64,000 bases of DNA from Apteryx mantelli (taxonomy: Eukaryota): positions 1 through 64,000 of the forward strand of contig NC_090015.1 in the NCBI RefSeq assembly GCF_036417845.1. The letters are read 5' to 3'. The position numbers were made by a program, and so were the translations under genes. Positions 28,161-64,000 of the stretch are shown piece after piece; positions within the stretch are counted from its first letter, which is position 1; the number at the start of each line of letters is the position of its first letter. The notes beneath the pieces are model-generated. The model searched no databases. It was not told where the DNA came from and was given only the letters and a program-made list of their open reading frames with translations.

Positions 28161-28168
28161 CCACGCAG

Positions 28169-42032: not shown

Positions 42033-42293
42033 TCAGGGAGGCGCCGGTGGGCGGAAGAGGCGCCAGGCGCCGCGGCAGATGAGGCCGAACCAGTAGAGCT
42101 GGGGGGCGAGGAGGGCGGCGGCGGCAGCGTTGTAGGCAGCAGGCAGCGCCGCCGGCACCCGCAGCAGCGGCAGCCCCGCGTGGCGCCCGTAGGCCCAGTA
42201 CAGGTAAGGGAAGAGCAGCACCCGGCACCCGAAGAAGGTCACCAGCATGGCCAAGCCGTTGAGCTTGTGCAGCGCCGTGTGTTGCCGCTTGTA
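42033..42293 (-). CDS. TLCD3B: TLCD3B (FAM57B) terminal coding exon ([86 protein letters not shown])
   Basis: Minus-strand translation aligns to the TLC-domain protein FAM57B/TLCD3B C-terminus '...[48 protein letters not shown]...[21 protein letters not shown]'. The minus-strand acceptor cag lies at plus 42294-42296. The frame matches ORF 42033..42317(-). Confidence 0.85.
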   Translation of the reverse strand, partial: [86 protein letters not shown]

Positions 42294-42339
42294 CTGCCGG
42301 GTGAAGAGGGGGGACAACGGGGGACGCGGTCAGCGCGTA

Positions 42340-42900
42340 GGGGGTGGCCGGGGTCACCTCTATGGTCTCCCGAGGGATCCTGGTGGCCGGGGACCCTGGT
42401 TCACCCCTATGTTCTCCTGAGGGACCCGGGTGTCTGGTGGCCCCGATCCATCCCTACGTCCTCCTGAGGGACCCAGGTGTCCGGGGATCCTGGTGTCTGG
42501 TGGCCCCGATCCATCCCTACGTCCTCCCGAGGGACCCAGGTGTCCGGGGACCCTGGTTCACCCCTATGTTCTCCTGAGGAACCCGGGTGTCTGGTGGCCC
42601 CGATCCATCCCTACGTCCTCCCGAGGGACCCAGGTGGCCGGGGATCCTGGTTCACCCCTATGTTCTCCTGAGGAACCCGGGTGTCTGGTGGCCCCGATCC
42701 ATCCCTACGTCCTCCTGAGGGACCCAGGTGGCCAGGGACCCTGGTTCACCCCTATGTTCTCCTGAGGGACCCGGGTGTCTGGTGGCCCCGATCCATCCCT
42801 ACGTCCTCCCGAGGGACCCAGGTGGCCGGAGACCCAAGTGACCAGTGGCCCCGATCCACCCCACGTCTTCCCAAGGGACCCAGGCGTCCGGGCCCCACCC
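42340..42900. repeat. Tandem repeat of about 46/92-bp units (ctggtggccccgatccatccctacgtcctcctgagggacccaggtgtccgg…ggttcacccctatgttctcctgag), in the last TLCD3B intron
   Basis: ORFs 42344.., 42430.. and 42477.. share peptides. Confidence 0.85.
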
Positions 42901-42936
42901 CGCCCTCCCCCCGAGGGGCCCAGGCGTCCGGCTCAC

Positions 42937-43032
42937 CAGGATGAGCACCTTGCCGAGGCAGACGAAGGGGGTGCTCAGCTCCGCCATGAGGAGGCAGCCC
43001 AAGAAGAAGTCGCCCTTGCCCTGGCGCCACAG
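42937..43032 (-). CDS. TLCD3B: TLCD3B coding exon ([32 protein letters not shown]); 96 bp, phase 0 at both ends; minus-strand donor gtgagc
   Basis: Aligns to FAM57B '[32 protein letters not shown]'. It is flanked by cag|ctg on the acceptor side and ctg|gtgagc on the donor side on the minus strand. Confidence 0.8.
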
Positions 43033-43039
43033 CTGGGGA

Positions 43040-43760
43040 CACGAGGGGGGACACGGGGGGACACGGGGGGGGACACGGGTCACACGGGGGGGGGACACGG
43101 ACACAGGTCACAAGGGGGAACAGGAGGACATGGGTCACATGACGTGGAGGACACCACCAGGACGTGGGGTGGCCTACCCGGGTTGCCCCCATCCCCACGG
43201 TGTCCCCAAGGTGTCCCCAACCCCCTCCCAACTCACGGAGGCCACAGGGAAGCAGAGCAGCACCGTGGTGGCCACCTCCTTGCCATGGTGGTGGCCTCCC
43301 ATCCCGTGTTCCCCAAGAGGTTCCTCCATCCCCGAGCCATCTCTGTCCCCATGGTGTCCCCAGCTGCTGTCCCCACTCGATGGGGAAGCAGACGAGGACC
43401 ATGGTGGCCACCACGAGCCCATCCTCGCCGACGTGGTGGCCACCCATCCCGTGTCTCCAAGAGGTTCCTCCGTCTCCAAGCCATGCTGGTGCCCCCAGGG
43501 TGTCCCCAACCCCCGTCCCCACTCATGGTGACCACGAGGACGCAGACGAGCACCACGGTGGCCACCACGAGAACGTCCCCGCCGAGGTGGTGGCCCCCCA
43601 ACGCCACGTCCCCAAGAAGGTTCCTCCGCCCCCCCCAAGCCCCGTCCCCACGGGGAAGCAGACGAGCACCACGGCGGCCACCACGAGACCATCCCCGCCA
43701 CGGTGGTGGCCCTCCATGCCACGTCCCCAAGAAGGTTCCTCCATCCCCGTCCCCTACTCA
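43040..43760. repeat. Tandem repeat of about 130-150-bp units derived from the TLCD3B exon end and donor
   Basis: See the TLCD3B copy feature above. Recurrent strings are gaagcagacgagcaccacgg(c/t)ggccaccacgag. Confidence 0.75.
43225..43700 (-). other. Four degenerate copies of the TLCD3B exon 3' end plus donor (…LVCFPVAA|gtgagt), in the adjacent intron at plus 43225-43290, 43355-43420, 43510-43580 and 43625-43700
   Basis: Minus-strand strings such as ctgctctgcttccctgtggcctccgtgagttgg, ctgcgtcctcgtggtcaccatgagtgggg and ctcgtctgcttccccgtggggacgg recur at a period of about 130-150 bp. Confidence 0.7.
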
Positions 43761-43761
43761 C

Positions 43762-43981
43762 GGCGGCCACGGGGAAGCAGACGAGCACCATGGCGGCGTG
43801 GTGGAGCACCATGAGCAGGTCCTTGCGGAGGTAGGCGGCGGCGGCGGCCCGCAGCGACGGCGGTGGCCCGGCCTCGTGGCCCTTGACGCGTCCCCGGTGC
43901 CAGTGGCAGAGGAACATGGCGTAGACGTCGTAGACGAAGTAGGGCACCGCGAACTCCGGGTAGGCGCCCGCCAGCCAGTGC
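43762..43981 (-). CDS. TLCD3B: TLCD3B coding exon (g-HWLAGAYPEFAVPYFVYDVYAMFLCHWHRGRVKGHEAGPPPSLRAAAAAYLRKDLLMVLHHAAMVLVCFPVAA); minus-strand donor gtgagt. The 5' (acceptor) boundary is uncertain
   Basis: Aligns to FAM57B 'QHWLSSAYTQFAVPYFIYDIYAMFLCHWH...YLHKEFLMVLHHAAMVLVCFP'. The conserved HH motif of the TLC domain is present. The open frame continues upstream into the 58-bp satellite, so I inferred the acceptor at 'acag|g' (plus 43981-43983). Confidence 0.65.
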
Positions 43982-43989
43982 CTGTCCCC

Positions 43990-46900
43990 AAAAATGACGT
44001 CAGGGGACCCAGGCGTCCGGGAGGGACCCAGGCGTCCGGGCAGGGACCCGGGTGTCCAGGGGACCCGGGTGTTTGGTGGCCTCGTGGCCACCATCTCCCC
44101 TGGTTTCACTCTACATCTGGGTCATCTTCAAGGGACCCAGGCGTCCGGGGAGACTCGTGTCACCTCTAGAGGGACCAGGCGTCCGGGAGGGGCCCAGGCG
44201 TCCGGGGAGTCTCGCGTCACCTCTAGGGGGACCCGGGCGTCCGGGAGGGGCCCAGGCGTCCGGGGAGTCTCGCGTCACCTCTAGGGGGACCCGGGCGTCC
44301 GGGAGGGGCCCAGGCGTCCGGGGAGCCTCGCGTCACCTCTAGGGGACCCGGGCGTCCGGGAGGGGCCCAGGCGTCCGGGGAGTCTCGCGTCACCTCTAGG
44401 GGGACCCGGGCGTCCGGGAGGGGCCCAGGCGTCCGGGGAGTCTCGCGTCACCTCCAGGGGGACCCGGGCGTCCGGGAGGGGCCCAGGCGTCCGGGGAGCC
44501 TCGCATCACCTCTAGGGGGACCCGGGCGTCCGGGAGGGGCCCAGGCGTCCGGGGAGTCTCGCGTCACCTCTAGAGGGACCCGGGCGTCCGGGAGGGGCCC
44601 AGGCGTCCGGGGAGTCTCGCGTCACCTCTAGAGGGACCCGGGCGTCCGGGAGGGGCCCAGGCGTCCGGGGAGTCTCGCGTCACCTCTAGGGGCACCCGGG
44701 CGTCCGGGAGGGGCCCAGGCGTCCGGGGAGTCTCGCGTCACCTCTAGGGGGACCCGGGCGTCCGGGAGGGGCCCAGGCGTCCGGGGAGTCTCGCGTCGCC
44801 TCTAGGGGGACCCGGGCGTCCGGGAGGGGCCCAGGCGTCCGGGGAGTCTCGCGTCACCTCTAGGGGGACCCGGGCGTCCGGGAGGGGCCCAGGCGTCCGG
44901 GGAGTCTCGCGTCACCTCTAGGGGGACCCGGGCGTCCGGGAGGGGCCCAGGCGTCCGGGGAGTCTCGCGTCACCTCTAGGGGGACCCGGGCGTGCTGGAG
45001 GGGCCCAGGCGTCCGGGGAGTCTCGCGTCGCCTCTAGGGGGACCCGGGCGTCCGGGAGGGGCCCAGGCGTCCGGGGAGTCTCGCGTCGCCTCTAGGGGGA
45101 CCCGGGCGTCCGGGAGGGGCCCAGGCGTCCGGGGAGCCTCGCGTCACCTCTAGGGGGACCCGGGCGTCCGGGAGGGGCCCAGGCGTCCGGGGAGCCTCGT
45201 GTCACCTCTAGGGGGGCCCGGGCGTCCGGGAGGGGCCCAGGCGTCCGGGGAGTCTCGCGTCACCTCTAGGGGGACCCGGGCGTCCGGGAGGGGCCCAGGC
45301 GTCCGGGGAGTCTCCTGTCACCTCTAGGGGCACCCGGGCGTCCGGGAGGGGCCCAGGCGTCCGGGGAGTCTCGCGTCACCTCTAGGGGACCCGGGCGTGC
45401 GGGAGGGGCCCAGGCGTCCGGGGAGTCTCGCGTCACCTCTAGGGGGACCCGGGCGTCCGGGAGGGGCCCAGGCGTCCGGGGAGCCTCGCGTCACCTCTAG
45501 GGGGACCCGGGCGTCCGGGAGGGGCCCAGGCGTCCGGGGAGTCTCGCGTCACCTCTAGAGGGACCCGGGCGTCCGGGAGGGGCCCAGGCGTCCGGGGAGC
45601 CTCGCGTCACCTCTAGAGGGACCCGGGCGTCCGGGAGGGGCCCAGGCGTCCGGGGAGTCTCGCGTCACCTCTAGGGGGACCCGGGCGTCCGGGAGGGGCC
45701 CAGGCGTCCGGGGAGTCTCGCGTCACCTCTAGGGGGACCCGGGCGTCCGGGAGGGGCCCAGGCGTCCGGGGAGTCTCGCGTCGCCTCTAGGGGGACCCGG
45801 GCGTCCGGGAGGGGCCCAGGCGTCCGGGGAGTCTCGCGTCACCTCTAGGGGGACCCGGGCGTCCGGGAGGGGCCCAGGCGTCCGGGGAGTCTCGCGTCAC
45901 CTCTAGGAGACCCGGGCGTCCGGGAGGGGCCCAGGCGTCCGGGGAGTCTCGCGTCACCTCTAGGGGGACCCGGGCGTCCGGGAGGGGCCCAGGCGTCCGA
46001 GGAGTCTGGCGTCACCTCTAGGGGGACCCGGGCGTCCGGGAGGGGCCCAGGCGTCCGGGGAGTCTCGCGTCACCTCTAGGGGGACCCGGGCGTCCGGGAG
46101 GGGCCCAGGCGTCCGGGGAGTCTCGCGTCACCTCTAGGGGGACCCGGGCGTCCGGGAGGGGCCCAGGCGTCCGGGGAGTCTCGCGTCACCTCTAGGGGGA
46201 CCCGGGCGTCCGGGAGGGGCCCAGGCGTCCGGGGAGTCTCGCGTCACCTCTAGAGGGACCCAGGTGTCCGGGAGGGGCCCAGGCGTCCGGGGAGTCTCGC
46301 GTCGCCTCTAGGGGGACCCGGGCGTCCGGGAGGGGCCCAGGCGTCCGGGGAGTCTCGCGTCACCTCTAGGGGGACCCGGGCGTCCGGGAGGGGCCCAGGC
46401 GTCCGAGGAGTCTGGCGTCACCTCTAGGGGGACCCGGGCGTCCGGGAGGGGCCCAGGCGTCCGGGGAGTCTCGCGTCACCTCTAGGGGGACCCGGGCGTC
46501 CGGGAGGGGCCCAGGCGTCCGGGGAGTCTCGCGTCACCTCTAGGAGACCCGGGCGTCCGGGAGGGGCCCAGGCGTCCGGGGAGTCTCGCGTCACCTCTAG
46601 AGGGACCCAGGCGTGCGGGAGGGGCCCAGGCGTCCGGGGAGTCTCGCGTCACCTCTAGAGGGACCCAGGCGTGCGGGAGGGGCCCAGGCGTCCGGGGAGT
46701 CTCGCGTCACCTCTAGGGGGACCCGGGCGTCCGGGAGGGGCCCAGGCGTCCGGGGAGTCTCGCGTCACCTCTAGGGGGACCCAGGTGTCCGAGAGGGGCC
46801 CAGGCGTCCGGGGAGTCTCGCGTCACCTTTACGGGGACCCAGGAGTCCGGGAGGGGCCCAGGCGTCCGGGGAGTCTCGCGTCGCCTCTAGGGGGACCCGG

Positions 46901-49900
46901 GTGTCCGGGAGGGGCCCAGGCGTCCGGGGAGGGGCCCAGGCGTCCGGGGAGTCTCGCGTCACCTCTAGGGGGACCCGGGCGTCCGGGAGGGGCCCAGGCG
47001 TCCGGGGAGTCTCGCGTCACCTCTAGGGGACCCGGGCGTCCGGGAGGGGCCCAGGCGTCTGGGGAGCCTCGTGTCACCTCTAGAGGGGCCCAGGCGTCCG
47101 GGGAGTCTGGCGTCACCTCTAGGGGGACCCGGGCGTCCGGGAGGGGCCCAGGCGTCTGGGGAGCCTCGTGTCACCTCTAGAGGGGCCCAGGCGTCCGGGG
47201 AGTCTGGCGTCACCTCTAGGGGGACCCGGGCGTCCGGGAGGGGCCCAGGCGTCTGGGGAGCCTCGTGTCACCTCTAGAGGGGCCCAGGCGTCCGGGGAGT
47301 CTGGCGTCACCTCTAGGGGGACCCGGGCGTCCGGGAGGGGCCCAGGCGTCCGGGGGGTCTCGCGTCACCTCTAGAGGGGCCCAGGCGTCCGGGGAGTCTG
47401 GCGTCACCTCTAGGGGGACCCGGGCGTCCGGGAGGGGCCCAGGCGTCTGGGGAGCCTCGTGTCACCTCTAGAGGGGCCCAGGCGTCCGGGGAGTCTCGCG
47501 TCACCTCTAGAGGGACCCGGGCGTCCGGGAGGGGCCCAGGCGTCCGGGGAGCCTCGCGTCACCTCTAGGGGGACCCGGGCGTGCGGGAGGGGCCCAGGCG
47601 TCCGGGGAGTCTCGTGTCACCTCTAGGGGGACCCAAGTGTCCGGGAGGGGCCCAGGCGTCCGGGGAGTCTCGCGTCACCTCTAGGGGGACCCGGGCGTGC
47701 GGGAGGGGCCCAGGCGTCCGGGGAGTCTCGCGTCACCTCTAGGGGGACCCGGGCGTGCGGGAGGGGCCCAGGCGTCCGGGGAGTCTCGTGTCACCTCTAG
47801 GGGGACCCGGGCGTCCGGGAGGGGCCCAGGCGTCCGGGGAGTCTCGCGTCACCTCTAGAGGGACCCGGGCGTCCGGGAGGGGCCCAGGCGTCCGGGGAGT
47901 CTCGTGTCACCTCTAGGGGGACCCGGGCGTCCGGGAGGGGCCCAGGCGTCCGGGGAGTCTCGCGTCACCTCTAGGGGGACCCGGGCGTCCGGGAGGGGCC
48001 CAGGCGTCCGGGGAGCCTCGCGTCACCTCTAGGGGGACCCGGGCGTCCGGGAGGGGCCCAGGCGTCCGGGGAGTCTCGCGTCACCTCTAGGGGGACCCGG
48101 GCGTCCGGGAGGGGCCCAGGCGTCCGGGGAGTCTCGCGTCACCTCTGGGGGGACCCGGGCGTCCGGGAGGGGCCCAGGCGTCCGGGGAGTCTCGCGTCAC
48201 CTCTAGAGGGGCCCAGGCGTCCGGGGAGTCTCGCGTCACCTCTGGGGGGACCCGGGCGTCCGGGAGGGGCCCAGGCGTCCGGGGAGTCTCGCGTCACCTC
48301 TAGGGGGACCCGGGCGTCCGGGAGGGGCCCAGGCGTCCGGGGAGCCTCGCGTCACCTCTAGGGGGACCCGGGCGTCCGGGAGGGGCCCAGGCGTCCGGGG
48401 AGTCTCGCGTCACCTCTAGGGGGACCCAGGCGTCCGGGAGGGGCCCAGGCGTCCGGGGAGTCTCGCGTCACCTCTAGGGGGACCCGGGCGTCCGGGAGGG
48501 GCCCAGGCGTCCGGGGAGTCTCGCGTCACCTCTAGGGGGACCCGGGCGTCCGGGAGGGGCCCAGGCGTCAGGGGAGTCTGGCGTCACCTCTAGGGGGACC
48601 CGGGCGTCCGCGAGGGGCCCAGGCGTCCGGGGAGCCTCGCGTCACCTCTAGGGGGACCCGGGCGTCCGGGAGGGGCCCAGGCGTCCGGGGAGTCTCGCGT
48701 CACCTCTAGGGGGACCCGGGCGTCCGGGAGGGGCCCAGGCGTCCGGGGAGTCTCGCGTCGCCTCTACGGGGACCCGGGCGTCCGGGAGGGGCCCAGGCGT
48801 CCGGGGAGTCTCGCGTCACCTCTAGAGGGACCCGGGCGTCCGGGAGGGGCCCAGGCGTCCGGGGAGTCTCGCGTCACCTCTAGGGGGACCCGGGCGTCCG
48901 GGAGGGGCCCAGGCGTCCGGGGAGCCTCGCGTCACCTCTAGGGGGACCCGGGCGTCCGGGAGGGGCCCAGGCGTCCGGGGAGTCTCGCGTCACCTCTAGG
49001 GGGACCCGGGCGTCCGGGAGGGGCCCAGGCGTCCGGGGAGTCTCGCGTCACCTCTAGGGGGACCCGGGCGTCCGGGAGGGGCCCAGGCGTCCGGGGAGCC
49101 TCGCGTCGCCTCTAGGGGGACCCGGGCGTCCGGGAGGGGCCCAGGCGTCCGGGGAGTCTCGCGTCACCTCTAGAGGGACCCGGGCGTCCGCGAGGGGCCC
49201 AGGCGTCCGGGGAGTCTCGCGTCGCCTCTAGGGGACCCGGGCGTCCGGGAGGGGCCCAGGCGTCCGGGGAGCCTCGCGTCACCTCTAGGGGGACCCGGGC
49301 GTCCGGGAGGGGCCCAGGCGTCCGGGGAGTCTCGCGTCACCTCTAGGGGGACCCGGGCGTCCGGGAGGGGCCCAGGCGTCCGGGGAGTCTCGCGTCACCT
49401 CTAGGGGGGCCCAGGCGTCCGGGGAGTCTCGCGTCACCTCTAGGGGGACCCGGGCGTCCGGGAGGGGCCCAGGCGTCCGGGGAGTCTCGCGTCACCTCTA
49501 GGGGGGCCCAGGCGTCCGGGGAGTCTCGCGTCACCTCTAGGGGGACCCGGGCGTCCGGGAGGGGCCCAGGCGTCCGGGGAGTCTCGCGTCACCTCTAGGG
49601 GGACCCAGGTTTCCGGGAGGGGCCCAGGCGTCCGGGGAGTCTCGCGTCACCTCTAGGGGGACCCGGGCGTCCGGGAGGGGCCCAGGCGTCCGGGGCATCT
49701 CGCGTCACCTCTAGGGGGACCCGGGCGTGCGGGAGGGGCCCAGGCGTCCGGGGAGTCTCGCGTCACCTCTAGGGGGACCCGGGCGTCCGGGAGGGGCCCA
49801 GGCGTCCGGGGAGTCTCGCGTCACCTCTAGGGGACCCGGGCGTCCGGGAGGGGCCCAGGCGTCCGGGGAGCCTCGCGTCACCTCTAGGGGGGCCCGGGCG

Positions 49901-52900
49901 TCCGGGAGGGGCCCAGGCGTCCGGGGAGTCTCGCGTCACCTCTAGGGGGACCCGGGCGTCCGGGAGGGGCCCAGGCGTCCGGGGAGTCTCGCGTCACCTC
50001 TAGGGGGACCCGGGCGTCCGGGAGGGGCCCAGGCGTCCGGGGAGTCTCGCGTCACCTCTGGGGGGACCCGGGCGTGCGGGAGGGGCCCAGGCGTCCGGGG
50101 AGTCTCGCGTCACCTCTAGGGGGACCCGGGCGTCCGGGAGGGGCCCAGGCGTCCGGGGAGTCTCGCGTCACCTCTAGGGGGACCCGGGCGTCCGAGGGGG
50201 GCCCAGGCGTCCGGGGAGTCTCGCGTCACCTCTAGGGGGACCCGGGCGTCCGGGAGGGGCCCAGGCGTCCGGGGAGCCTCGCGTCACCTCTAGGGGGACC
50301 CGGGCGTCCGGGAGGGGCCCAGGCGTCCGGGGAGTCTCGCGTCACCTCTAGGGGGACCCGGGCGTCCGGGAGGGGCCCAGGCGTCCGGGGAGCCTCGCGT
50401 CACCTCTAGGGGGACCCGGGCGTCCGGGAGGGGCCCAGGCGTCCGGGGAGTCTCGCGTCACCTCTAGGGGGACCCGGGCGTCCGGGAGGGGCCCAGGCGT
50501 CCGGGGAGCCTCGCGTCACCTCTAGAGGGGCCAGGCGTCCGCGGAGTCTCGCGTCACCTCTAGGGGACCCAGGTGTCCGGGGAGTCTCGTGTCATCTCTA
50601 GGGGACCCAGGTGTCCGGGGAGTCTCGTGTCACCTCTAGGGGGACCCGGGCGTCCGGGAGGGGCCCAGGCGTCCGCGGAGTCTCGCGTCACCTCTAGGGG
50701 ACCCAGGTGTCCGGGGAGTCTCGTGTCATCTCTAGGGGACCCAGGTGTCCGGGGAGTCTCGCGTCACCTCTAGGGGGACCCGGGCGTCCGGGAGGGGCCC
50801 AGGCGTCCGGGGAGTCTCGCGTCATCTCTAGGGGACCCAGGTGTCCGGGGAGTCTCGTGTCACCTCTAGGGGGACCCGGGCGTCCGGGAGGGGCCCAGGC
50901 GTCCGGGGAGTCTCGCGTCACCTCTAGAGGGACCAGGTGTCCGTGAGGGGCCCAGGTGTCCGGGAGGGGCCCAGGCGTCCGGGGAGCCTCGCGTCACCTC
51001 TAGGGGGACCCGGGCGTCCGGGAGGGGCCCAGGCGTCCGGGGAGTCTCGCGTCACCTCTAGAGGGACCCGGGCGTCCGGGAGGGGCCCAGGCGTCCGGGG
51101 AGTCTCGCGTCACCTCTAGGGGGACCCGGGCGTCCGGGAGGGGCCCAGGCGTCCGGGGAGTCTCGCGTCACCTCTAGGGGGACCCGGGCGTCCGGGAGGG
51201 GCCCAGGCGTCCGGGGAGTCTGGCGTCACCTCTACGGGGACCCGGGCGTCCGGGAGGGGCCCAGGCGTCCGGGGAGTCTCGCGTCACCTCTAGAGGGACC
51301 CGGGCGTCCGGGAGGGGCCCAGGCGTCCGGGGAGTCTCGCGTCACCTCTAGGGGGACCCGGGCGTCCGCGAGGGGCCCAGGCGTCCGGGGAGCCTCGCGT
51401 CACCTCTAGGGGGACCCGGGCGTCCGGGAGGGGCCCAGGCGTCCGGGGAGTCTCGCGTCACCTCTAGGGGGACCCGGGCGTCCGGGAGGGGCCCAGGCGT
51501 CCGGGGAGTCTCGCGTCACCTCTAGGGGGACCCGGGCGTCCGGGAGGGGCCCAGGCGTCCGGGGAGTCTCGCGTCACCTCTAGGGGGACCCGGGCGTCCG
51601 GGAGGGGCCCAGGCGTCCGGGGAGTCTCGCGTCACCTCTAGGGGGACCCGGGCGTCCGGGAGGGGCCCAGGCGTCCGGGGAGCCTCGCGTCACCTCTAGG
51701 GGGGCCCGGGTGTCCGGGAGGGGCCCAGGCGTCCGGGGAGCCTCGCGTCACCTCTGAGGGGACCCGGGCGTGCGGGAGGGGCCCAGGCGTCCGGGGAGCC
51801 TCGCGTCACCTCTAGGGGGACCCGGGCGTCTGGGAGGGGCCCAGGCGTCCGGGGAGTCTCGCGTCACCTCTAGGGGGACCCGGGCGTCCGGGAGGGGCCC
51901 AGGCGTCCGGGGAGTCTCGCGTCACCTCTAGGGGGACCCGGGCGTCCGGGAGGGGCCCAGGCGTCCGGGGAGTCTCGCGTCACCTCTAGGGGGACCCGGG
52001 CGTCCGGGAGGGGCCCAGGCGTCCGGGGAGTCTTGCGTCACCTCTAGGGGGACCCGGGCGTCCGGGAGGGGCCCAGGCGTCCGGGGAGCCTCGCGTCGCC
52101 TCTAGGGGGACCCGGGCGTCCGGGAGGGGCCCAGGCGTCCGGGGAGCCTCGCGTCACCTCTAGGGGCACCCGGGCGTCCGGGAGGGGCCCAGGCGTCCGG
52201 GGAGTCTCGCGTCACCTCTAGAGGGACCCGGGCGTCCGCGAGGGGCCCAGGCGTCCGGGGAGTCTCGCGTCGCCTCTAGGGGACCCGGGCGTCCGGGAGG
52301 GGCCCAGGCGTCCGGGGAGTCTCGCGTCACCTCTAGGGGGACCCGGGCGTCCGGGAGGGGCCCAGGCGTCCGGGGAGTCTCGCGTCACCTCTAGGGGGGC
52401 CCAGGCGTCCGGGGAGTCTCGCGTCACCTCTAGGGGGACCCGGGCGTCCGGGAGGGGCCCAGGCGTCCGGGGAGTCTCCTGTCACCTCTAGGGGGACCCG
52501 GGCGTCCGGGAGGGGCCCAGGCGTCCGGGGAGTCTCGCGTCACCTCTAGGGGGACCCGGGCGTCCGGGAGGGGCCCAGGCGTCCGGGGAGTCTCGCGTCA
52601 CCTCTAGGGGGACCCGGGCGTCTGGGAGGGGCCCAGGCGTCCGGGGAGTCTCGCGTCACCTCTAGGGGGCCCAGGCGTCCGGGAGGGGCCCAGGCGTCCG
52701 GGGAGTCTCGCGTCACCTCTAGGGGGACCCGGGCGTCCGGGAGGGGCCCAGGCGTCCGGGGAGTCTCGCGTCACCTCTAGGGGGACCCGGGCGTCCGGGA
52801 GGGGCCCAGGCGTCCGGGGAGTCTCGCGTCACCTCTAGAGGGACCCGGGCGTCCGGGAGGGGCCCAGGCGTCCGGGCAGTCTCGCGTCACCTCTAGGGGG

Positions 52901-55900
52901 ACCCGGGCGTCCGGGAGGGGCCCAGGCGTCCGGGGAGTCTCGCGTCGCCTCTAGGGGGACCCGGGCGTCCGGGAGGGGCCCAGGCGTCCGGGGAGTCTCG
53001 CGTCACCTCTAAGGGGACCCGGGCGTCCGCGAGGGGCCCAGGTGTCCGGGGAGTCTCGCGTCACCTCTGGGGGGACCCGGGCGTCCGGGAGGGGCCCAGG
53101 CGTCCGGGGAGTCTCGCGTCACCTCTAGGGGGACCCGGGCGTCCGGGAGGGGCCCAGGCGTCCGGGGAGTCTCGCGTCACCTCTAGGGGGACCCGGGCGT
53201 CCGGGAGGGGCCCAGGCGTCCGGGGAGTCTCGCGTCACCTCTAGGGGGGCCCAGGCGTCCGGGGAGTCTCGCGTCACCTCTAGGGGGACCCGGGCGTCCG
53301 GGAGGGGCCCAGGCGTCCGGGGAGTCTCCTGTCACCTCTAGGGGGACCCAGGTTTCCGGGAGGGGCCCAGGCGTCCGGGGAGTCTCGCGTCACCTCTAGG
53401 GGGACCCGGGCGTCCGGGAGGGGCCCAGGCGTCCGGGGCATCTCGCGTCACCTCTAGGGGGACCCGGGCGTGCGGGAGGGGCCCAGGCGTCCGGGGAGTC
53501 TCGCGTCACCTCTAGGGGACCCGGGCGTCCGGGAGGGGCCCAGGCGTCCGGGGAGTCTCGCGTCACCTCTAGGGGGACCCGGGCGTGCGGGAGGGGCCCA
53601 GGCGTCCGGGGAGTCTCGCGTCACCTCTAGGGGGCCCAGGCGTCCGGGAGGGGCCCAGGCGTCCGGGGAGTCTCGCGTCACCTCTAGGGGGACCCGGGCG
53701 TCCGGGAGGGGCCCAGGCGTCCGGGGAGTCTCGCGTCACCTCTAGGGGGACCCGGGCGTCCGGGAGGGGCCCAGGCGTCCGGGGAGTCTCGCGTCACCTC
53801 TAGGGGACCCGGGCGTCCGGGAGGGGCCCAGGCGTCCGGGGAGTCTCGCGTCACCTCTAGGGGGACCCGGGCGTCCGGGAGGGGCCCAGGCGTCCGGGGA
53901 GTCTCGCGTCACCTCTAGGGGGGCCCGGGCGTCCGGGAGGGGCCCAGGCGTCCGGGGAGTCTCGCGTCACCTCTAGGGGACCCGGGCGTCTGGGAGGGGC
54001 CCAGGTGTCCGGGGAGGGGCCCAGGCGTCCGGGGAGTCTCGCGTCACCTCTAGGGGACCCGGGCGTCCGGGAGGGGCCCAGGCGTCCGGGGAGCCTCGCG
54101 TCACCTCTAGGGGGACCCGGGCGTCCGGGAGGGGCCCAGGCGTCCGGGGAGTCTCGCGTCACCTCTAGGGGGACCCGGGCGTCCGGGAGGGGCCCAGGCG
54201 TCCGGGGAGTCTCGCGTCACCTCTAGGGGGACCCGGGCGTCCGGGAGGGGCCCAGGCGTCCGGGGAGTCTCGCGTCACCTCTAGGGGGACCCGGGCGTCC
54301 GGGAGGGGCCCAGGCGTCCGGGGAGTCTCGCGTCACCTCTAGGGGGACCCGGGCGTCCGGGAGGGGCCCAGGCGTCCGGGGAGTCTCGCGTCACCTCCGG
54401 GGGGACCCGGGCGTGCGGGAGGGGCCCAGGCGTCCGGGGAGTCTCGCGTCACCTCTAGGGAGACCCGGGCGTCCGGGAGGGGCCCAGGCGTCCGGGGAGT
54501 CTCGCGTCACCTCTAGGGGGACCCGGGCGTCCGGGAGGGGCCCCAGGCGTCCGGGGAGTCTCGCGTCACCTCTGGGGGGACCCGGGCGTCCGGGAGGGGC
54601 CCAGGCGTCCGGGGAGTCTCGCGTCACCTCTAGGGGGACCCGGGCGTCCGGGAGGGGCCCAGGCGTCCGGGGAGTCTCGCGTCACCTCTAGGGGGACCCG
54701 GGCGTCCGGGAGGGGCCCAGGCGTCCGGGGAGTCTCGCGTCACCTCTAGGGGGACCCGGGCGTCCGGGAGGGGCCCAGGCGTCCGGGGAGCCTCGCGTCA
54801 CCTCTAGGGGACCCGGGCGTCCGGGAGGGGCCCAGGCGTCCGGGGAGTCTGGCGTCACCTCTAGGGGGACCCGGGCGTCCGGGAGGGGCCCAGGCGTCCG
54901 GGGAGTCTCGCGTCACCTCTAGGGGGACCCGGGCGTGCGGGAGGGGCCCAGGCGTCCGGGGAGTCTCGCGTCACCTCTAGGGGGACCCGGGCGTCCGGGA
55001 GGGGCCCAGGCGTCCGGGGAGTCTCGCGTCACCTCTAGGGGGACCCGGGCGTCCGCGAGGGGCCCAGGCGTCCGGGGAGTCTCGCGTCACCTCTAGGGGA
55101 CCCGGGCGTCCGGGAGGGGCCCAGGCGTCCGGGGAGTCTGGCGTCACCTCTAGGGGGACCCGGGCGTCCGGGAGGGGCCCAGGCGTCCGGGGAGTCTCGC
55201 GTCACCTCTAGGGGGACCCGGGCGTCCGGGAGGGGCCCAGGCGTCCGGGGAGTCTCGCGTCACCTCTAGGGGGACCTAGGAGTCCGGGAGGGGCCCAGGC
55301 GTCCGGGGAGTCTCCTGTCACCTCTAGGGGGACCCGGGCGTCCGGGAGGGGCCCAGGCGTCCGGGCAGTCTCGCGTCACCTCTAGGGGGACCCGGGCGTC
55401 CGGGAGGGGCCCAGGCGTCCGGGGAGCCTCGCGTCACCTCTAGGGGGACCCGGGCGTGCGGGAGGGGCCCAGGCGTCCGGGGAGCCTCGCGTCACCTCTA
55501 GAGGGACCCGGGCGTCCGGGAGGGGCCCAGGCGTCCGGGGAGCCTCGCGTCACCTCTAGGGGACCCGGGCGTGCGGGAGGGGCCCAGGCGTCCGGGGAGT
55601 CTCGCGTCACCTCTAGGGGGACCCGGGCGTCCGGGAGGGGCCCAGGCGTCCGGGAGGGGCCCAGGCGTCCGGGGAGCCTCGCGGTCACCTCTAGGGGGAC
55701 CCGGGCGTCCGGGAGGGGCCCAGGCGTCCGGGGAGCCTCGCGTCACCTCTAGGGGGACCCGGGCGTCCGGGAGGGGCCCAGGCGTCCGGGGAGTCTCGCG
55801 TCACCTCTAGGGGGACCCGGGCGTCCGGGAGGGGCCCAGGCGTCCGGGGAGTCTCGCGTCACCTCTAGGGGGACCCGGGCGTCCGGGAGGGGCCCAGGCG

Positions 55901-58900
55901 TCCGGGGAGTCTCGCGTCACCTCTAGGGGGACCCGGGCGTCCGGGAGGGGCCCAGGCGTCCGGGGAGTCTCGCGTCGCCTCTAGGGGGACCCGGGCGTCC
56001 GGGAGGGGCCCAGGCGTCCGGGGAGTCTCGCGTCACCTCTAGGGGGACCCGGGCGTCCGGGAGGGGCCCAGGCGTCCGGGAGGGGCCCAGGCGTCCGGGG
56101 AGCCTCGCGTCACCTCTAGGGGGACCCGGGCGTCCGGGAGGGGCCCAGGCGTCCGGGGAGCCTCGCGTCACCTCTAGGGGGACCCGGGCGTCCCGGAGGG
56201 GCCCAGGCGTCCGGGGAGTCTCGCGTCACCTCTAGGGGGACCTGGGCGTCCGGGAGGGGCCCAGGCGTCCGGGGAGTCTGGCGTCACCTCTAGGGGGACC
56301 CGGGCGTGCGGGAGGGGCCCAGGCGTCCGGGGAGTCTCGCGTCACCTCTAGGGGGACCCGGGCGTCCGGGAGGGGCCCAGGCGTCCGGGAGGGGCCCAGG
56401 CGTCCGGGGAGCCTCGCGTCACCTCTAGGGGGACCCGGGCGTCCGGGAGGGGCCCAGGCGTCCGGGGAGCCTCGCGTCACCTCTAGGGGGACCCGGGCGT
56501 CCGGGAGGGGCCCAGGCGTCCGGGGAGTCTCGCGTCGCCTCTAGGGGGACCCGGGCGTGCGGGAGGGGCCCAGGCGTCCGGGGAGTCTCGCGTCACCTCT
56601 AGGGGGACCCGGGCGTCCGGGAGGGGCCCAGGCGTCCGGGAGGGGCCCAGGCGTCCGGGGAGCCTCGCGTCACCTCTAGGGGGACCCGGGCGTCCGGGAG
56701 GGGCCCAGGCGTCCGGGGAGTCTCGCGTCACCTCTAGGGGGACCCGGGCGTCCGGGAGGGGCCCAGGCGTCCGGGGAGGCTGGCGTCACCTCTAGGGGGA
56801 CCCGGGCGTCCGGGAGGGGCCCAGGCGTCCGGGGAGCCTCGCGTCACCTCTAGGGGGACCCGGGCGTCCGGGAGGGGCCCAGGCGTCCGGGGCGTCTCGC
56901 GTCAACTCTGGGGGGACCCGGGCGTGCGGGAGGGGCCCAGGTGTCCGGGGAGTCTCGCGTCACCTCTAGGGGGACCCAGGTGTCCGGGAGGGGCCCAGGC
57001 GTCCGGAGGGGCCCAGGCGTCCGGGGAGTCTCGCGTCACCTCTAGGGGGACCCAGGCGTCCGGGAGGGGGCCCAGGCGTCCGGGAGGGGCCCAGGCGTCC
57101 GGGGAGTCTCGCGTCACCTCTAGGGGGACCCGGGCGTCCGGGAGGGGCCCAGGCGTCCGGGGAGTCTCGCGTCACCTCTAGGGGACCCGGGCGTCCGGGA
57201 GGGGCCCAGGCGTCCGGGGAGTCTCGCGTCACCTCTAGGGGGACCCGGGCGTCCGGGAGGGGCCCAGGCGTCCGGGGAGTCTCGCGTCACCTCTAGGGGG
57301 ACCCGGGCGTCCGGGAGGGGCCCAGGCGTCCGGGGAGTCTCGCGTCACCTCTGGGGGGACCCGGGCGTCCGGGAGGGGCCCAGGCGTCCGGGGAGTCTCG
57401 CGTCACCTCTAGGGGGACCCGGGCGTCCGGGAGGGGCCCAGGCGTCCGGGGAGTCTCGCGTCACCTCTAGGGAGGGACCCGGGCGTCCGGGAGGGGCCCA
57501 GGCGTCCGGGGAGCCTCGCGTCACCTCTAGAGGGACCCAGGTGTCCGGGAGGGGCCCAGGCGTCCGGGGAGTCTCGCGTCACCTCTAGGGGGACCCGGGC
57601 GTCCGGGAGGGGCCCAGGCGTCCGGGGAGCCTCGCGTCACCTCTAGGGGGACCCGGGCGTCCGGGAGGGGCCCAGGCGTCCGGGGAGTCTCGCGTCACCT
57701 CTAGAGGGACCCGGGCATCCGGGAGGGGCCCAGGCGTCCGGGGAGCCTCGCGTCACCTCTAGAGGGACCCAGGTGTCCGGGAGGGGCCCAGGTGTCCGGG
57801 GAGTCTCGCGTCACCTCTAGAGGGACCTGGGCGTCCCGGAGGGGCCCAGGCGTCCGGGGAGTCTCGCGTCACCTCTAGAGGGACCCGGGCATCTGGGAGG
57901 GGCCCAGGCGTCCGGGGAGTCTCGCGTCACCTCTAGGGGGACCCGGGCGTCCGGGAGGGGCCCAGGCGTCCGGGGAGTCTCGCGTCACCTCTAGAGGGAC
58001 CAGGTGTCCGGGAGGGGCCCAGGTGTCCGGGAGGGGCCCAGGCGTCCGGGGAGTCTCGCGTCACCTCTAGGGGGACCCGGGCGTCCGGGAGGGGCCCAGG
58101 CGTCCGGGGAGTCTCGCGTCACCTCTAGGGGGACCCGGGCGTCCGGGAGGGGCCCAGGCGTCCGGGGAGTCTCGCGTCACCTCTAGGGGGACCCGGGCGT
58201 CCGGGAGGGGCCCAGGCGTCCGGGGAGTCTCGCGTCACCTCTAGGGGGACCCGGGCGTCCGGGAGGGGCCCAGGCGTCCGGGGAGTCTGGCGTCACCTCT
58301 AGAGGGACCCGGGCGTCCGGGAGGGGCCCAGGCGTCCGGGGAGTCTCGCGTCACCTCTGGGGGGACCCGGGCGTCCGGGAGGGGCCCAGGCGTCCGGGGA
58401 GCCTCGCGTCACCTCTAGGGGGACCCGGGCGTCCGGGAGGGGCCCAGGCGTCCGGGGAGTCTCGCGTCACCTCTGGGGGGACCCGGGCGTCCGGGAGGGG
58501 CCCAGGCGTCCGGGGAGTCTCGCGTCACCTCTAGGGGGACCCGGGGCGTCCGGGAGGGGCCCAGGCGTCCGGGGAGTCTCGCGTCACCTCTGGGGGGACC
58601 CGGGCGTCCGGGAGGGGCCCAGGCGTCCGGGGAGTCTCGCGTCACCTCTAGGGGGACCCGGGCGTCCGGGAGGGGCCCAGGCGTCCGGGGAGTCTCGCGT
58701 CACCTCTAGGGGGACCCGGGCGTCCGGGAGGGGCCCAGGCGTCCGGGGAGTCTCGCGTCACCTCTAGGGGGACCCGGGCGTCCGGGAGGGGCCCAGGCGT
58801 CCGGGGAGTCTCGCGTCACCTCTAGGGGGACCCGGGCGTCCGGGAGGGGCCCAGGCGTCCGGGGAGTCTCGCGTCACCTCGAGGGGCACCCGGGCGTGCG

Positions 58901-61900
58901 GGAGGGGCCCAGGCGTCCGGGGAGTCTCGCGTCACCTCTAGGGGGACCCGGGCGTCCCGGAGGGGCCCAGGCGTCCGGGGAGTCTCGCGTCACCTCTAGG
59001 GGGACCCAGGTGTCCGGGAGGGGCCCAGGCGTCCGGGGAGTCTCGCGTCACCTCCAGGGGAACCCGGGCGTCCGGGAGGGGCCCAGGCGTCCGGGCAGTC
59101 TCGCGTCACCTCTAGGGGGACCCGGGCGTCCGGGAAGGGCCCAGGCGTCCGGGGAGTCTCGCGTCACCTCTAGGGGGACCCGGGTGTCCGGGAGGGGCCC
59201 AGGCGTCCGGGAGGGGCCCAGGCGTCCGGGGAGTCTCGCGTCACCTCTAGGGGGACCCGGGCGTCCGGGAGGGGCCCAGGCGTCCGGGGAGTCTCGCGTC
59301 ACCTCTAGGGGGACCCGGGCGTGCGGGAGGGGCCCAGGCGTCCGGGGAGTCTCGCGTCACCTCTAGGGGGACCCGGGCGTCCGGGAGGGGCCCAGGCGTC
59401 CGGGGAGCCTCGCGTCACCTCTAGAGGGGCCCAGGCGTCCGGGGAGCCTCGCGTCACCTCTAGAGGGACCCAGGTGTCCGGGAGGGGCCCAGGCGTCCGG
59501 GGAGTCTCGCGTCACCTCTAGGGGACCCGGGCGTCCGGGAGGGGCCCAGGCGTCCGGGGAGTCTCGCGTCACCTCTAGGGGGACCCGGGCGTCCGGGAGG
59601 GGCCCAGGCGTCCGGGGAGTCTCGCGTCACCTCTAGAGGGACCCGGGCGTCCGGGAGGGGCCCAGGCGTCCGGGGAGTCTCGCGTCACCTCTAGGGGGAC
59701 CCGGGCGTCCGGGAGGGGCCCAGGCGTCCGGGGAGTCTCGCGTCACCTCTAGGGGGACCCGGGTGTCCCGGAGGGGCCCAGGCGTCCGGGGAGTCTCGCG
59801 TCGCCTCTAGAGGGGCCCAGGCGTGCGGGAGGGGCCCAGGCGTCCGGGGAGTCTCGCGTCACCTCTAGGGGGACCCGGGCGTCCGGGAGGGGCCCAGGCG
59901 TCCGGGGAGTCTCGCGTCACCTCTAGAGGGACCCACGTGTCCGGGAGGGGCCCAGGCGTCCGGGGAGTCTCGCGTCACCTCTAGAGGGACCCGGGCGTCC
60001 GGGAGGGGCCCAGGCGTCCGGGGAGTCTCGCGTCACCTCTAGGGGCACCCGGGCGTCCGGGAGGGGCCCAGGCGTCCGGGGAGTCTCGCGTCACCTCTAG
60101 GGGGACCCGGGTGTCCGGGAGGGGCCCAGGCGCCCGGGGAGTCTCGCGTCACCTCTAGGGGGGCCCAGGCGTCCGGGGAGTCTCGCATCACCTCTAGGGG
60201 GACCCGGGCGTCCGGGAGGGGCCCAGGCGTCCGGGGAGCCTCGCGTCACCTCTAGGGGGACCCGGGCGTCCGGGAGGGGCCCAGGCGTCCGGGGAGTCTC
60301 GCGTCACCTCTAGGGGGACCCGGGCGTCCGGGAGGGGCCCAGGCGTCCGGGGAGTCTCGCGTCACCTCTAGGGGGACCCAGGTGTCCGGGAGGGGCCCAG
60401 GCGTCCGGGGAGTCTCGCGTCACCTCTAGGGGGACCCGGGCGTCCGGGAGGGGCCCAGGCGTCCGGGGAGTCTCGCGTCGCCTCTAGGGGGACCCGGGCG
60501 TCCGGGAGGGGCCCAGGCGTCCGGGGAGTCTCGCGTCACCTCTAGAGGGACCAAGGCGTCCGGGAAGGGCCCAGGCGTCCGGGGAGTCTCGCGTCACCTC
60601 TAGGGGGACCCGGGCGTCCGGGAGGGGCCCAGGCGTCCGGGGAGGCTCGCGTCACCTCTAGGGGGACCCGGGCGTCCGGGAGGGGCCCAGGCGTCCGGGG
60701 AGTCTGGCGTCACCTCTAGGGGGACCCGGGCGTCCGGGAGGGGCCCAGGCGTCCGGGGAGTCTCGCGTCACCTCTAGGGGGACCCGGGCGTCCGGGAGGG
60801 GCCCAGGCGTCCGGGGCGTCTCGCGTCAACTCTGGGGGGACCCGGGCGTGCGGGAGGGGCCCAGGTGTCCGGGGAGTCTCGCGTCACCTCTAGGGGGACC
60901 CAGGTGTCCGGGAGGGGCCCAGGCGTCCGGGAGGGGCCCAGGCGTCCGGGGAGTCTCGCGTCACCTCTAGGGGGACCCAGGCGTCCGGGAGGGGCCCAGG
61001 CGTCCGGGAGGGGCCCAGGCGTCCGGGGAGTCTCGCGTCACCTCTAGGGGGACCCGGGCGTCCGGGAGGGGCCCAGGCGTCCGGGGAGTCTCGCGTCACC
61101 TCTGGGGGGACCCGGGCGTGCGGGAGGGGCCCAGGCGTCCGGGGAGTCTCGCGTCACCTCTAGGGGGACCCGGGCGTGCGGGAGGGGCCCAGGCGTCCGG
61201 GGAGTCTCGCGTCACCTCTAGGGGGACCCGGGCGTCCGGGAGGGGCCCAGGCGTCCGGGGAGTCTCGCGTCACCTCTAGAGGGACCCGGGCGTCCGGGAG
61301 GGGCCCAGGCGTCCGGGGAGTCTCGCGTCACCTCTAGGGGGACCCGGGCGTCCGGGAGGGGCCCAGGCGTCCGGGGAGTCTCGCGTCACCTCTAGGGGGA
61401 CCCGGGCGTCCGGGAGGGGCCCAGGCGTCCGGGGAGTCTCGCGTCACCTCTAGGGGGACCCGGGCGTCCGGGAGGGGCCCAGGCGTCCGGGGAGTCTCGC
61501 GTCACCTCTAGGGGGACCCGGGCGTCCGGGAGGGGCCCAGGCGTCCGGGGAGTCTCGCGTCACCTCTAGAGGGGCCCGGGCGTCCGGGAGGGGCCCAGGC
61601 GTCCGGGGAGTCTCGTGTCACCTCTAGAGGGGCCCAGGCGTCCGGGGAGTCTCGCGTCACCTCTAGGGGGACCCGGGCGTCCGGGAGGGGCCCAGGCGTC
61701 CGGGGAGTCTCGCGTCACCTCTAGAGGGACCCGGGCGTCCGGGAGGGGCCCAGGCGTCCGGGGAGCCTCGCATCACCTCTGGGGGGACCTGGGCGTCCGG
61801 GAGGGGCCCAGGCGTCCGGGGAGCCTCGCGTCACCTCTAGGGGGACCCGGGCGTCCGGGAGGGGCCCAGGCGTCCGGGGAGTCTCGCGTCACCTCTAGGG

Positions 61901-64000
61901 GGACCCGGGCGTCCGGGAGGGGCCCAGGCGTCCGGGGAGCCTCGCGTCACCTCTAGGGGGACCCGGGCGTCCGGGAGGGGCCCAGGCGTCCGGGGAGTCT
62001 CGCGTCACCTCTAGGGGGACCAAGGTGTCCGGGAGGGGCCCAGGCGTCCGGGGAGCCTCGCGTCACCTCTAGGGGGACCCGGGCGTGCGGGAGGGGCCCA
62101 GGCGTCCGGGGAGCCTCGCGTCACCTCTAGGGGGACCCGGGCGTCCGGGAGGGGCCCAGGCGTCCGGGGAGTCTCGCGTCACCTCTAGGGGGACCAAGGT
62201 GTCCGGGAGGGGCCCAGGCGTCCGGGGAGCCTCGCGTCACCTCTAGGGGGACCCGGGCGTGCGGGAGGGGCCCAGGCGTCCGGGGAGTCTCGCGTCACCT
62301 CTAGGGGGACCCGGGCGTCCGGGAGGGGCCCAGGCGTCCGGGGAGTCTCGTGTCACCTCTAGAGGGGCCCAGGCGTCCGGGGAGCCTCGCGTCACCTCTA
62401 GGGGGACCCGGGCGTCCGGGAGGGGCCCAGGCGTCCGGGGAGCCTCGCGTCACCTCTAGGGGGACCCGGGCGTCCGGGAGGGGCCCAGGCGTCCGGGGAG
62501 TCTCGCGTCACCTCTAGGGGGACCAAGGTGTCCGGGAGGGGCCCAGGCGTCCGGGGAGCCTCGCGTCACCTCTAGGGGGACCCGGGCGTGCGGGAGGGGC
62601 CCAGGCGTCCGGGGAGTCTCGCGTCACCTCTAGGGGGACCCGGGCGTCCGGGAGGGGCCCAGGCGTCCGGGGAGCCTCGCGTCACCTCTAGAGGGACCCG
62701 GGCGTCCGGGAGGGGCCCAGGCGTCCGGGGAGTCTCGCGTCACCTCTAGGGGGACCCGGGCGTCCGGGAGGGGCCCAGGCGTCCGGGGAGTCTCGCGTCA
62801 CCTCTAGGGGGACCCGGGCGTGCGGGAGGGGCCCAGGCGTCCGGGGAGTCTCGCGTCACCTCTAGGGGACCCGGGCGTGCGGGAGGGGCCCAGGCGTCCG
62901 GGGAGTCTCGCGTCACCTCTAGGGGGACCCAGGCGTCCGGGAGGGGCCCAGGCGTCCGGGGAGCCTCGCGTCACCTCTAGGGGGACCCGGGCGTGCGGGA
63001 GGGGCCCAGGCGTCCGGGGAGTCTCGCGTCACCTCCGGGGGGACCCGGGCGTGCGGGAGGGGCCCAGGCGTCCGGGGAGTCTCGCGTCACCTCTAGGGGG
63101 ACCCGGGCGTCCGGGAGGGGCCCAGGCGTCCGGGGAGTCTCGCGTCACCTCTAGGGGGACCCGGGCGTCCGGGAGGGGCCCAGGCGTCCGGGGAGTCTCG
63201 CGTCACCTCTGGGGGGACCCGGGCGTGCGGGAGGGGCCCAGGCGTCCGGGGAGTCTCGCGTCACCTCTAGGGGGACCCGGGCGTCCGGGAGGGGCCCAGG
63301 CGTCCGGGGAGTCTCGCGTCACCTCTAGAGGGACCCAGGTGTCCGGGAGGGGCCCAGGCGTCCGGGGAGTCTCGCGTCACCTCTAGGGGGACCCGGGCGT
63401 CCGGGAGGGGCCCAGGCGTCCGGGGAGTCTCGCGTCACCTCTAGAGGGGCCCGGGCGTCCGGGAGGGGCCCAGGCGTCCGGGGAGTCTCGTGTCACCTCT
63501 AGAGGGGCCCAGGCGTCCGGGGAGTCTCGCGTCACCTCTAGAGGGGCCCGGGCGTCCGGGAGGGGCCCAGGCGTCCGGGGAGTCTCGCGTCACCTCTAGA
63601 GGGACCCAGGTGTCCGGGAGGGGCCCAGGCGTCCGGGGAGTCTCGCGTCACCTCTAGGGGGACCCGGGCGTCCGGGAGGGGCCCAGGCGTCCGGGGAGCC
63701 TCGCGTCACCTCTAGGGGGACCCGGGCGTCCGGGAGGGGCCCAGGCGTCCGGGGAGTCTCGCGTCACCTCTAGGGGGACCCGGGCGTCCGGGAGGGGCCC
63801 AGGCGTCCGGGGAGTCTCGCGTCACCTCTAGAGGGACCCAGGTGTCCGGGAGGGGCCCAGGCGTCCGGGGAGTCTCGCGTCACCTCTAGGGGGACCCAGG
63901 TGTCCGGGAGGGGCCCAGGCGTCCGGGGAGTCTCGCGTCACCTCTAGGGGGACCCAGGTGTCCGGGAGGGGCCCAGGCGTCCGGGGAGTCTCGCGTCACC
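43990..64000. repeat. Satellite array of at least 20 kb built from a 58-bp unit (ctagggggacccgggcgtccgggaggggcccaggcgtccggggagtctcgcgtcacct), at least 340 copies, continuing past the window end. A 97-bp higher-order sub-domain lies at about 47040-47500
   Basis: The ctagggggac anchor recurs at 58-bp steps (44223, 44281, ...). The unit is an internal 20-bp half-duplication (gggacccgggcgtccgggag / gggcccaggcgtccggggag) plus tctcgcgtcacctcta. ORFs 47071, 47168 and 47265 show the 97-bp period. Confidence 0.95.

Follow-up and report, generated by a model that had tools for sequence, protein, structure and literature searches.

Exons of TLCD3B and the adjoining tandem array

The DNA studied here is a window of 64,000 nucleotides of Apteryx mantelli (assembly GCF_036417845.1, contig NC_090015.1, positions 1 to 64,000 of the forward strand), which contains three exons of TLCD3B (FAM57B) and, next to the most upstream of these, a tandem array of 58-bp units running to the last base of the window. 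Repeats were called with Tandem Repeats Finder (TRF) on the whole window, and the array was cut into units at an anchor in the spacer. Exons were located by tblastn with human TLCD3B and MVP (major vault protein) probes. The TLCD3B probe was checked against a primate entry, which it matched at 100%; the MVP probe was used just for finding exons, whose identity Pfam then confirmed from the translation of the window itself. The features of the TLCD3B end of the window are as follows.

42033 to 42293, minus strand: last coding exon of TLCD3B, TGA stop included (tblastn; Pfam TLC, E 1.5e-10)
42354 to 42931: 47/94-bp arrays in the last TLCD3B intron, which carry the core motif GGGACCCAGGTGTCCGGG in the same orientation as the 58-bp array (TRF)
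42937 to 43032, minus strand: TLCD3B exon following exon C (tblastn, boundaries)
43213 to 43761, minus strand: intron 3' of exon C, in which the 3' end of this exon, with its donor, recurs as four extra partial copies
43762 to 43981, minus strand: internal coding exon C of TLCD3B, about residues 70-143 of the human protein (homology, Pfam TLC, splice sites)
44004 to 44057: three bare 19-bp cores (TRF period 19, 2.8 copies; core matches at 44004, 44023 and 44043)
44058 to 44130: non-repeated stretch of 73 bp, the sole break in the tandem-repeat cover of 44001-64000 (TRF coverage, sequence)
44131 to 64000: 58-bp tandem array reaching the window end, 19,870 bp or more in length and equivalent to about 343 units (TRF, segmentation)

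The initial annotation had assigned the exon beside the array to TLCD3B, and both the assignment and its coordinates proved exact. The translation of exon C is 89-91% identical to bird FAM57B-like proteins (penguin and owl, 91% for Pygoscelis). The exon has an acceptor (...GGGGACAG/GCACTGG, the slash marking the exon edge) and a donor (GCCGCC/GTGAGT) with AG and GT present, and all TLCD3B splice sites in the window are canonical. Joined together, the three exons encode 191 residues that match the Pfam TLC domain (PF03798, E 1.7e-26), but over profile positions 49-198 only, positions 1-48 lacking. Comparison with the orthologous exons of another bird (locus L002) gave a ratio of nonsynonymous to synonymous substitution rates (dN/dS) of 0.089, with dS 0.60 and a proportion of synonymous differences (pS) of 0.41, which indicates strong purifying selection. 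To judge from its sequence, TLCD3B is clearly functional here.

In mammals and fish residues 1-70 come from two exons (A and B) upstream of exon C. Neither was found anywhere in the window, permissive searches included, and, the 73-bp stretch apart, 44001-64000 has no gap between repeats in which an exon could be hidden. Exon C starts in the middle of a codon behind its acceptor and has no start codon, and an owl protein model splices exon B to exon C. The mid-codon start, the intact acceptor and the apparent functionality of the gene together imply that the missing exons should lie beyond the array, and that the array is most likely a TLCD3B intron of at least 20 kb. The initial annotation had expected the N-terminal exons beyond the array and had described the gene as apparently interrupted by it. 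The absence of these exons from the window is confirmed; their location past the array, and with it the interruption, is deduced from the acceptor, the low dN/dS and the owl model, the far side being outside the window.

Repeats at TLCD3B are not limited to the array. The 3' end of exon C (...HHxxMVLVCFPV plus donor) was counted five times in all, the extra copies lying in the adjoining intron at 43647-43672, 43531-43556, 43377-43402 and 43241-43266 (TRF, tblastn, motif count), and TRF reports a 116-bp period over 43511-43797 at this exon edge. Degenerate copies of the same exon end can also be seen in the downstream introns of the penguin Pygoscelis adeliae (locus L001, 10240-11160) and of the L002 bird (700-1100), thus the exon-edge duplication appears to be old and not species-specific. 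The last TLCD3B intron contains matches to the array core at 42468-42932; the core shared by the 47/94-bp and 58-bp arrays identifies them as related repeats in two introns that are separated by exons. Scanning of the window found the core motif outside the array only in the TLCD3B region (40178-44060), with none in positions 1-40000. One core copy in this region, at 40178-40195 downstream of TLCD3B, is inverted.

Anatomy and composition of the 58-bp array

TRF detected a 58-bp period that extends from 44131 to the window end at 64000; in the cleanest blocks matches amount to 93-97%. Segmentation at the anchor divided 44156-63934 into 344 head-to-tail units. Measured from the exon at 43762-43981, the first core is 22 bp and the regular array 149 bp away, and repeats cover 99.6% of 44001-64000. 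In each 58-bp unit a 20-bp spacer, GAGTCTCGCGTCACCTCTAG, precedes two 19-bp cores that are nearly identical, GGGGACCCGGGCGTCCGGG and AGGGGCCCAGGCGTCCGGG. When searched with an 18-bp core and up to 3 mismatches, 690 matches were found, as against 1.75 expected from shuffled sequences. All units have the same orientation, with no inverted copy in the array, and the G-rich strand is the plus strand, that is the template strand of TLCD3B.

The great majority of the units (287 of 344) are exactly 58 bp long. The rest are of 57 bp (20 units), 39 bp (15), 38 bp (6), 76-78 bp (13) and 59-60 bp (3). The length variants retain the spacer and have either one core (38/39 bp) or three (76-78 bp); as the 39-, 58- and 77-bp classes differ by exactly one 19-bp core, length appears to change in one-core steps. 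The 58-mers are on average 98.1% identical to their own consensus, 114 of the 287 being exact copies of it, and comprise 80 distinct sequences. Their mean pairwise difference is 3.5%. Adjacent 58-mers differ at 1.95 positions and random pairs at 2.02, a difference which is not significant, being reached in 84 of 1000 permutations.

In several places units of different length or type alternate in short patches with a longer period:

47046 to 47530: 97-bp patch, strict alternation of 58-bp and 39-bp (single-core) units, five times (anchor spacings, unit map 'IOIOI.ZOI')
49309 to 49617: second 97-bp patch, 3.2 copies, 98% matches (TRF, unit map 'AKAKA')
50429 to 51080: patch of 38-bp and 58-bp units, 96- and 134-bp periods (TRF, unit map 'ef.ef')
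55501 to 56273: 135/136-bp patch of 77-bp (three-core) and 58-bp units (TRF, length map)
57878 to 58166, 59063 to 59616 and 60779 to 61201: similar 135-bp (77+58) patches (TRF, length map)

Around the first of these patches TRF reports a looser 97-bp period of 8.2 copies over 46792-47587. On a larger scale, the unit-type map shows strings of variants that recur kilobases apart (at about 49.7 and 53.3 kb, and at about 56.7 and 60.6 kb), which points to duplications of blocks inside the array. A higher-order period extending over the entire array was considered and rejected: autocorrelation by lag revealed only 58 bp and its multiples, decaying through insertions and deletions, and the patches consist of 2-8 copies.

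These data can be set against what the initial annotation had said of the array. Its count of more than 340 units of 58 bp up to the window end was borne out. It was right that the unit contains an internal duplication, but the sizes given (a 20-bp half-unit with a 16-18-bp spacer) need a small correction, to two 19-bp cores and a 20-bp spacer. The 97-bp variant of 58 plus 39 bp does repeat about five times where it was reported, but other patches of similar kind exist. The local homogenisation read from that variant is not demonstrable beyond the short length-variant patches, as the permutation test described above indicates.

The base composition of the array is uniform, with a GC content of 0.76-0.78 (0.77 overall) and a GC skew of about +0.15. 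There are about 6.7 CpG dinucleotides per unit, and the observed/expected CpG ratio is 0.79 in the array as against 0.44 in the rest of the window; the higher ratio could reflect recent amplification or homogenisation, or germline hypomethylation. Departures from the consensus number 314, and 77 of them are transitions at one of the 14 CpG positions. The canonical G-quadruplex (G4) pattern occurs 274 times on the plus strand and not once on the minus strand, which amounts to about one motif per unit. The GC content of 77%, the CpG density and the G4 motif in each unit make the locus hard to sequence and to assemble.

Read in the orientation of the gene, the units contain a sequence resembling a 3' splice site, CCCCCTAG (321 copies), and 2 nt farther on one resembling a 5' splice site, AG/GTGAC (241 copies). 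The possibility that the array is coding was rejected: 58 is not a multiple of 3, and TAG and TGA in the unit limit stop-free runs to 218 and 119 codons. No Rfam family matched anywhere in the window at gathering thresholds. Pattern scans of public metagenome contigs detected no independent copies of the repeat, and a literature search for the core sequence returned a single match, an unrelated paper on goat miRNA.

The site in other birds and the rest of the window

Searches with a profile of the 58-mer found units of full length right at the 5' side of the orthologous exon, both in Pygoscelis adeliae and in the L002 bird (E 4e-6 to 2e-2). In the alignment these foreign units keep the orientation seen in the window and the core-spacer-core layout. 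A godwit contig opens with a copy of the core 57 bp ahead of the orthologous exon. All four of the short-read bird contigs that carry exon C (4/4) end, or enter N gaps, 0-375 bp from the exon on the array side. We regard these breaks as indirect evidence for a long array at the same place in other birds. They also directly support the suggestion of the initial annotation that such an array is a reason why genes of this kind are missing from short-read assemblies. The unit copies of the penguin and of the L002 bird are, by eye, about as diverged from the consensus of the window as synonymous sites are (pS 0.41). An old seed that descended neutrally and was amplified separately in each lineage would suffice to account for the shared units.

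The bird TLCD3B proteins returned by database search were all fragments, and a search with the N-terminal TLCD3B peptide retrieved mammalian and fish sequences only, with no bird exon among them. Homology searches with TLCD3B and MVP gave partial or distant matches, the best reaching 91% (penguin) and, along part of the query, 83%. The penguin locus contains a further array, located 5' of TLCD3B past two assembly gaps (3470-4857; 41-bp period, 34 copies, 99% matches). It is 69-77% similar to a 10/31-bp CCTCCCAGTG array in an MVP intron of our window (17743-19303), a similarity that is probably a low-complexity resemblance or the result of a scaffold mis-join, and not orthology.

The remainder of the window is occupied mainly by MVP, for which the features are listed below.

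about 910 to 39533, plus strand: MVP (Pfam Vault, Vault_2 and MVP_shoulder; colinear exon matches)
19541 to 23569, plus strand: three copies of the 3' end of the MVP exon ending at 19570, two of them 1.5 and 4 kb inside a 9/18-bp array
26557 to 28198, plus strand: six copies of the edge of the MVP exon at about 28167
32009 to 33291, plus strand: nine copies of the start of the MVP exon at about 33251

The gene spans at least 38.6 kb, its first exon or exons preceding the window start, and its exons are small islands between unrelated arrays, each intron being filled by a repeat of its own. Motif counts show that edges of MVP exons were copied into the adjacent introns together with potential splice sites, a classic case of 'exon stuttering'. 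Altogether, positions 1-44000 contain about twenty unrelated arrays, 0.8-4.8 kb long, and 84.5% of this stretch is tandem repeat; for the whole window the figure is 89%, with a GC content of 0.59-0.78. The other arrays are far less uniform than the 58-bp array (TRF matches 59-99%, mostly 60-90%). Two of them, at 40745-41895 and 11375-12443, are unrelated to each other and have a 41-bp period; this is the unit length of the chicken repeats CNM and PO41 known from the literature. A repeat-filled gene is thus the norm in this window. The initial annotation had called a satellite of this size unusual for a coding locus, a view that is contradicted by the repeat content of the other 44 kb, by the MVP introns and by the published descriptions of the phenomenon.

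MVP and TLCD3B are arranged tail to tail with about 2.5 kb between their last exons (39533-42033). In human 16p11.2 about ten genes lie between MVP and TLCD3B, among them DOC2A, KCTD13, SEZ6L2, CDIPT, TAOK2, HIRIP3 and INO80E, and ALDOA, PPP4C, MAZ and KAT8 are neighbours of these two genes. The supplement of Hron et al. (2026, PMC12954441) counts DOC2A, KCTD13 and SEZ6L2 among the genes that all birds have lost, which fits the direct adjacency of MVP and TLCD3B seen here, and it assigns ALDOA, PPP4C, MAZ and KAT8 to chicken chromosome 38. The locus is most likely on a microchromosome that is the counterpart of chicken dot chromosome 38. The GC content, the tandem-repeat cover of 89% and the presence of the 16p11.2-type genes MVP and TLCD3B are consistent, in an indirect way, with such a location.

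Origin of the array and its relation to known repeats

It is instructive to compare the array with the 'sequence stuttering' described on chicken dot chromosomes, where introns between intact exons are filled by local repeats whose units measure tens to hundreds of bases, the exon edge and its splice site are sometimes copied as well, and the affected introns vary extremely in length among individuals (Hron et al. 2026, PMC12954441). The stuttering stretches are 112-23,555 bp long, with a median of 1,751 bp (Hron et al. 2026, PMC12954441). The similarities to our array are several. A local repeat of tens of base pairs fills a putative intron, the conserved exon C is intact at the proximal edge, the motif is probably of local origin, and the setting is GC-rich and free of interspersed repeats. 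Copied exon edges are present in the neighbouring TLCD3B intron and in MVP, although none was found in the 58-bp array itself. The length of the array is within the reported range (up to 23.6 kb), at its top even though the array is truncated by the window. With regard to locality, the motif occurs within the window in the TLCD3B region only, but the core is present in two introns and the distal boundary is past the window. Stuttering repeats are described as imperfect and less organized, and orthologous introns usually carry different repeats (PMC12954441). Our array differs in both respects, since it is satellite-like and since other birds have a recognisable 58-bp unit at the orthologous site.

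Other repeat-filled introns and satellites offer further comparisons. In the complete genome of the zebra finch, more than 70% of the intron sequence of dot chromosomes is tandem repeat and enriched in G4 motifs; intronic G4s are mostly on the coding strand and the commonest repeat unit is 10-11 bp (bioRxiv 10.1101/2025.10.17.683159). Our array resembles these and other dot-chromosome minisatellites in filling a putative intron with repeats rich in G4 and direct-repeat motifs. It differs from the zebra finch repeats in its unit length, 58 bp not being a multiple of 10-11 bp, and in the strand of its G4 motifs. With centromeric and pericentromeric satellites, such as the 41-bp CNM repeat of chicken (PMC9974502), the array shares the head-to-tail arrangement in a single orientation, the high identity of the units and some higher-order periodicity. 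Unlike those satellites, its higher-order patches comprise 2-8 copies only, it begins 22-149 bp from a conserved exon, its motif is confined to a single gene within the window, and there is nothing that ties it to a centromere. The initial annotation had asked whether this is a chromosome-specific or centromeric satellite; a centromeric or chromosome-wide satellite is not supported, the motif being restricted to TLCD3B within the window.

A further parallel comes from Drosophila. For satellite-filled gigantic introns of Y-linked fertility genes Hron et al. (2026) cite Fingerhut and Yamashita (2022). In general, the introns of these Drosophila genes, which are testis-specific, extend up to megabases, are made of simple 5-10-bp satellites and are located in heterochromatin. 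As in those genes, a conserved coding gene here would have a long homogeneous satellite to transcribe through and to splice out. The differences are in scale and setting, the TLCD3B array measuring at least 20 kb, having a compound 58-bp unit and being located in gene-dense, GC-rich DNA. We regard the array as a member of an already described class, the repeat-filled introns of dot chromosomes, and not as a new kind of element; its distinctive features are its size, its regularity and its positional conservation.

Taking these observations together, we think it probable that the array is a locally generated minisatellite, which fills at least 20 kb of the TLCD3B intron between coding exons 2 and 3 on a GC-rich microchromosome and represents an extreme, regular case of stuttering. 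A 19-bp intronic core adjacent to the exon probably had its core-spacer-core layout before several bird lineages parted from their common ancestor, and this seed then most likely grew by slippage during replication, by unequal exchange or by gene conversion. Misalignment by one core would give the 39-, 58- and 77-bp length classes, and duplication of small blocks would give the short patches of higher order as well as the internal duplications on the kilobase scale. Being non-coding, the array would presumably enter the pre-mRNA and be removed from it by splicing.

It must be noted that several observations weigh against this interpretation. The far boundary of the array and exons A and B fall outside the window, thus the intronic position was not observed. 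In length it exceeds every other array of the window by a factor of at least four. Its units are 98% identical to their consensus, whereas stuttering repeats are imperfect, and its G4 motifs are on the template strand only (274 vs. 0), unlike those of the zebra finch intronic minisatellites. The non-significant similarity of neighbouring units lends no direct support to local duplication on the scale of single units, and when a dimer of the unit was folded as DNA, its stability did not exceed that of shuffled sequences on either strand (z -0.25 and +0.27), which gives no sign of hairpins that would favour slippage. Because these two tests, of neighbour similarity and of hairpins, were negative, the mechanism stays an inference, one shared with the proposals in the literature, for which the support is structural: the one-core length classes, the duplicated strings of variants and the uniform orientation.

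The array may alternatively be not intronic at all, and lie upstream of a TLCD3B gene that begins near 44 kb, either with an alternative first exon or promoter or as a 5'-truncated gene, or it may mark the transition from the gene-rich part of the chromosome to a heterochromatic satellite. This would account for 20 kb without a visible upstream exon and for the length, homogeneity and satellite-like character of the array, and satellite-rich pericentromeric heterochromatin is reported to make up about 40% of the sequence of dot chromosomes (complete chicken genome paper). We consider it unlikely all the same, as exon C opens in mid-codon behind a canonical acceptor and without a start codon, the encoded TLC domain lacks profile positions 1-48, and the dN/dS value argues for a complete functional gene; moreover, the owl model has an upstream exon spliced to exon C, and the motif is local to TLCD3B and found at the same intronic position in other birds. 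A different doubt concerns the assembly. The array might be real while its length or internal pattern is the product of over-expansion, collapse or a mis-join, and the extreme GC richness and G4 density are of the kind for which the literature reports poor coverage by HiFi and short reads and local variation of technical origin. Since there are 80 distinct 58-mers, structured length variants and non-periodic kilobase duplications in the array, and since the assemblies of four other birds, made independently, all break off at precisely this point, as a truly long array would lead one to expect, an artefact seems to us very improbable.

The smallest likelihood is given to the reading in which the array is a selected functional element, for example a regulator of TLCD3B transcription or splicing or a chromatin boundary, and no neutral by-product. 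In three bird lineages the architecture of the unit can be recognised at one and the same position in spite of a dS of about 0.6, every unit has about one template-strand G4 motif, and the units contain the paired splice-like sites CCCCCTAG and AG/GTGAC. On the other hand, the foreign copies are about as diverged as synonymous sites (by eye, as stated above), no signal of structure or of an RNA family was detected, and comparable arrays of unrelated units fill every other intron of the window. It is extremely unlikely that an ancient, positionally conserved satellite has been kept for the sake of TLCD3B, where its G4 motifs and splice-like pairs could pace transcription or allow recursive-like removal of the intron. 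If true, such a functional satellite would give vertebrates a parallel to the regulated satellite introns found in Y-linked genes of Drosophila.

This fully resolved array illustrates cleanly why conserved genes such as TLCD3B look partial or 'missing' in the genomes of birds. The absence of such GC-rich euchromatin from earlier assemblies is explained in the complete chicken genome paper. For annotation the array carries a warning: the first exons of TLCD3B may sit more than 20 kb away across pure repeat, a distance which many settings for gene finding and RNA mapping would fail to bridge. The array also adds two nuances to the picture of stuttering. Stuttering arrays can reach the regularity of classical satellites, and a seed unit can persist at one intronic position across bird lineages, which implies that not all expansions use species-specific sequence.

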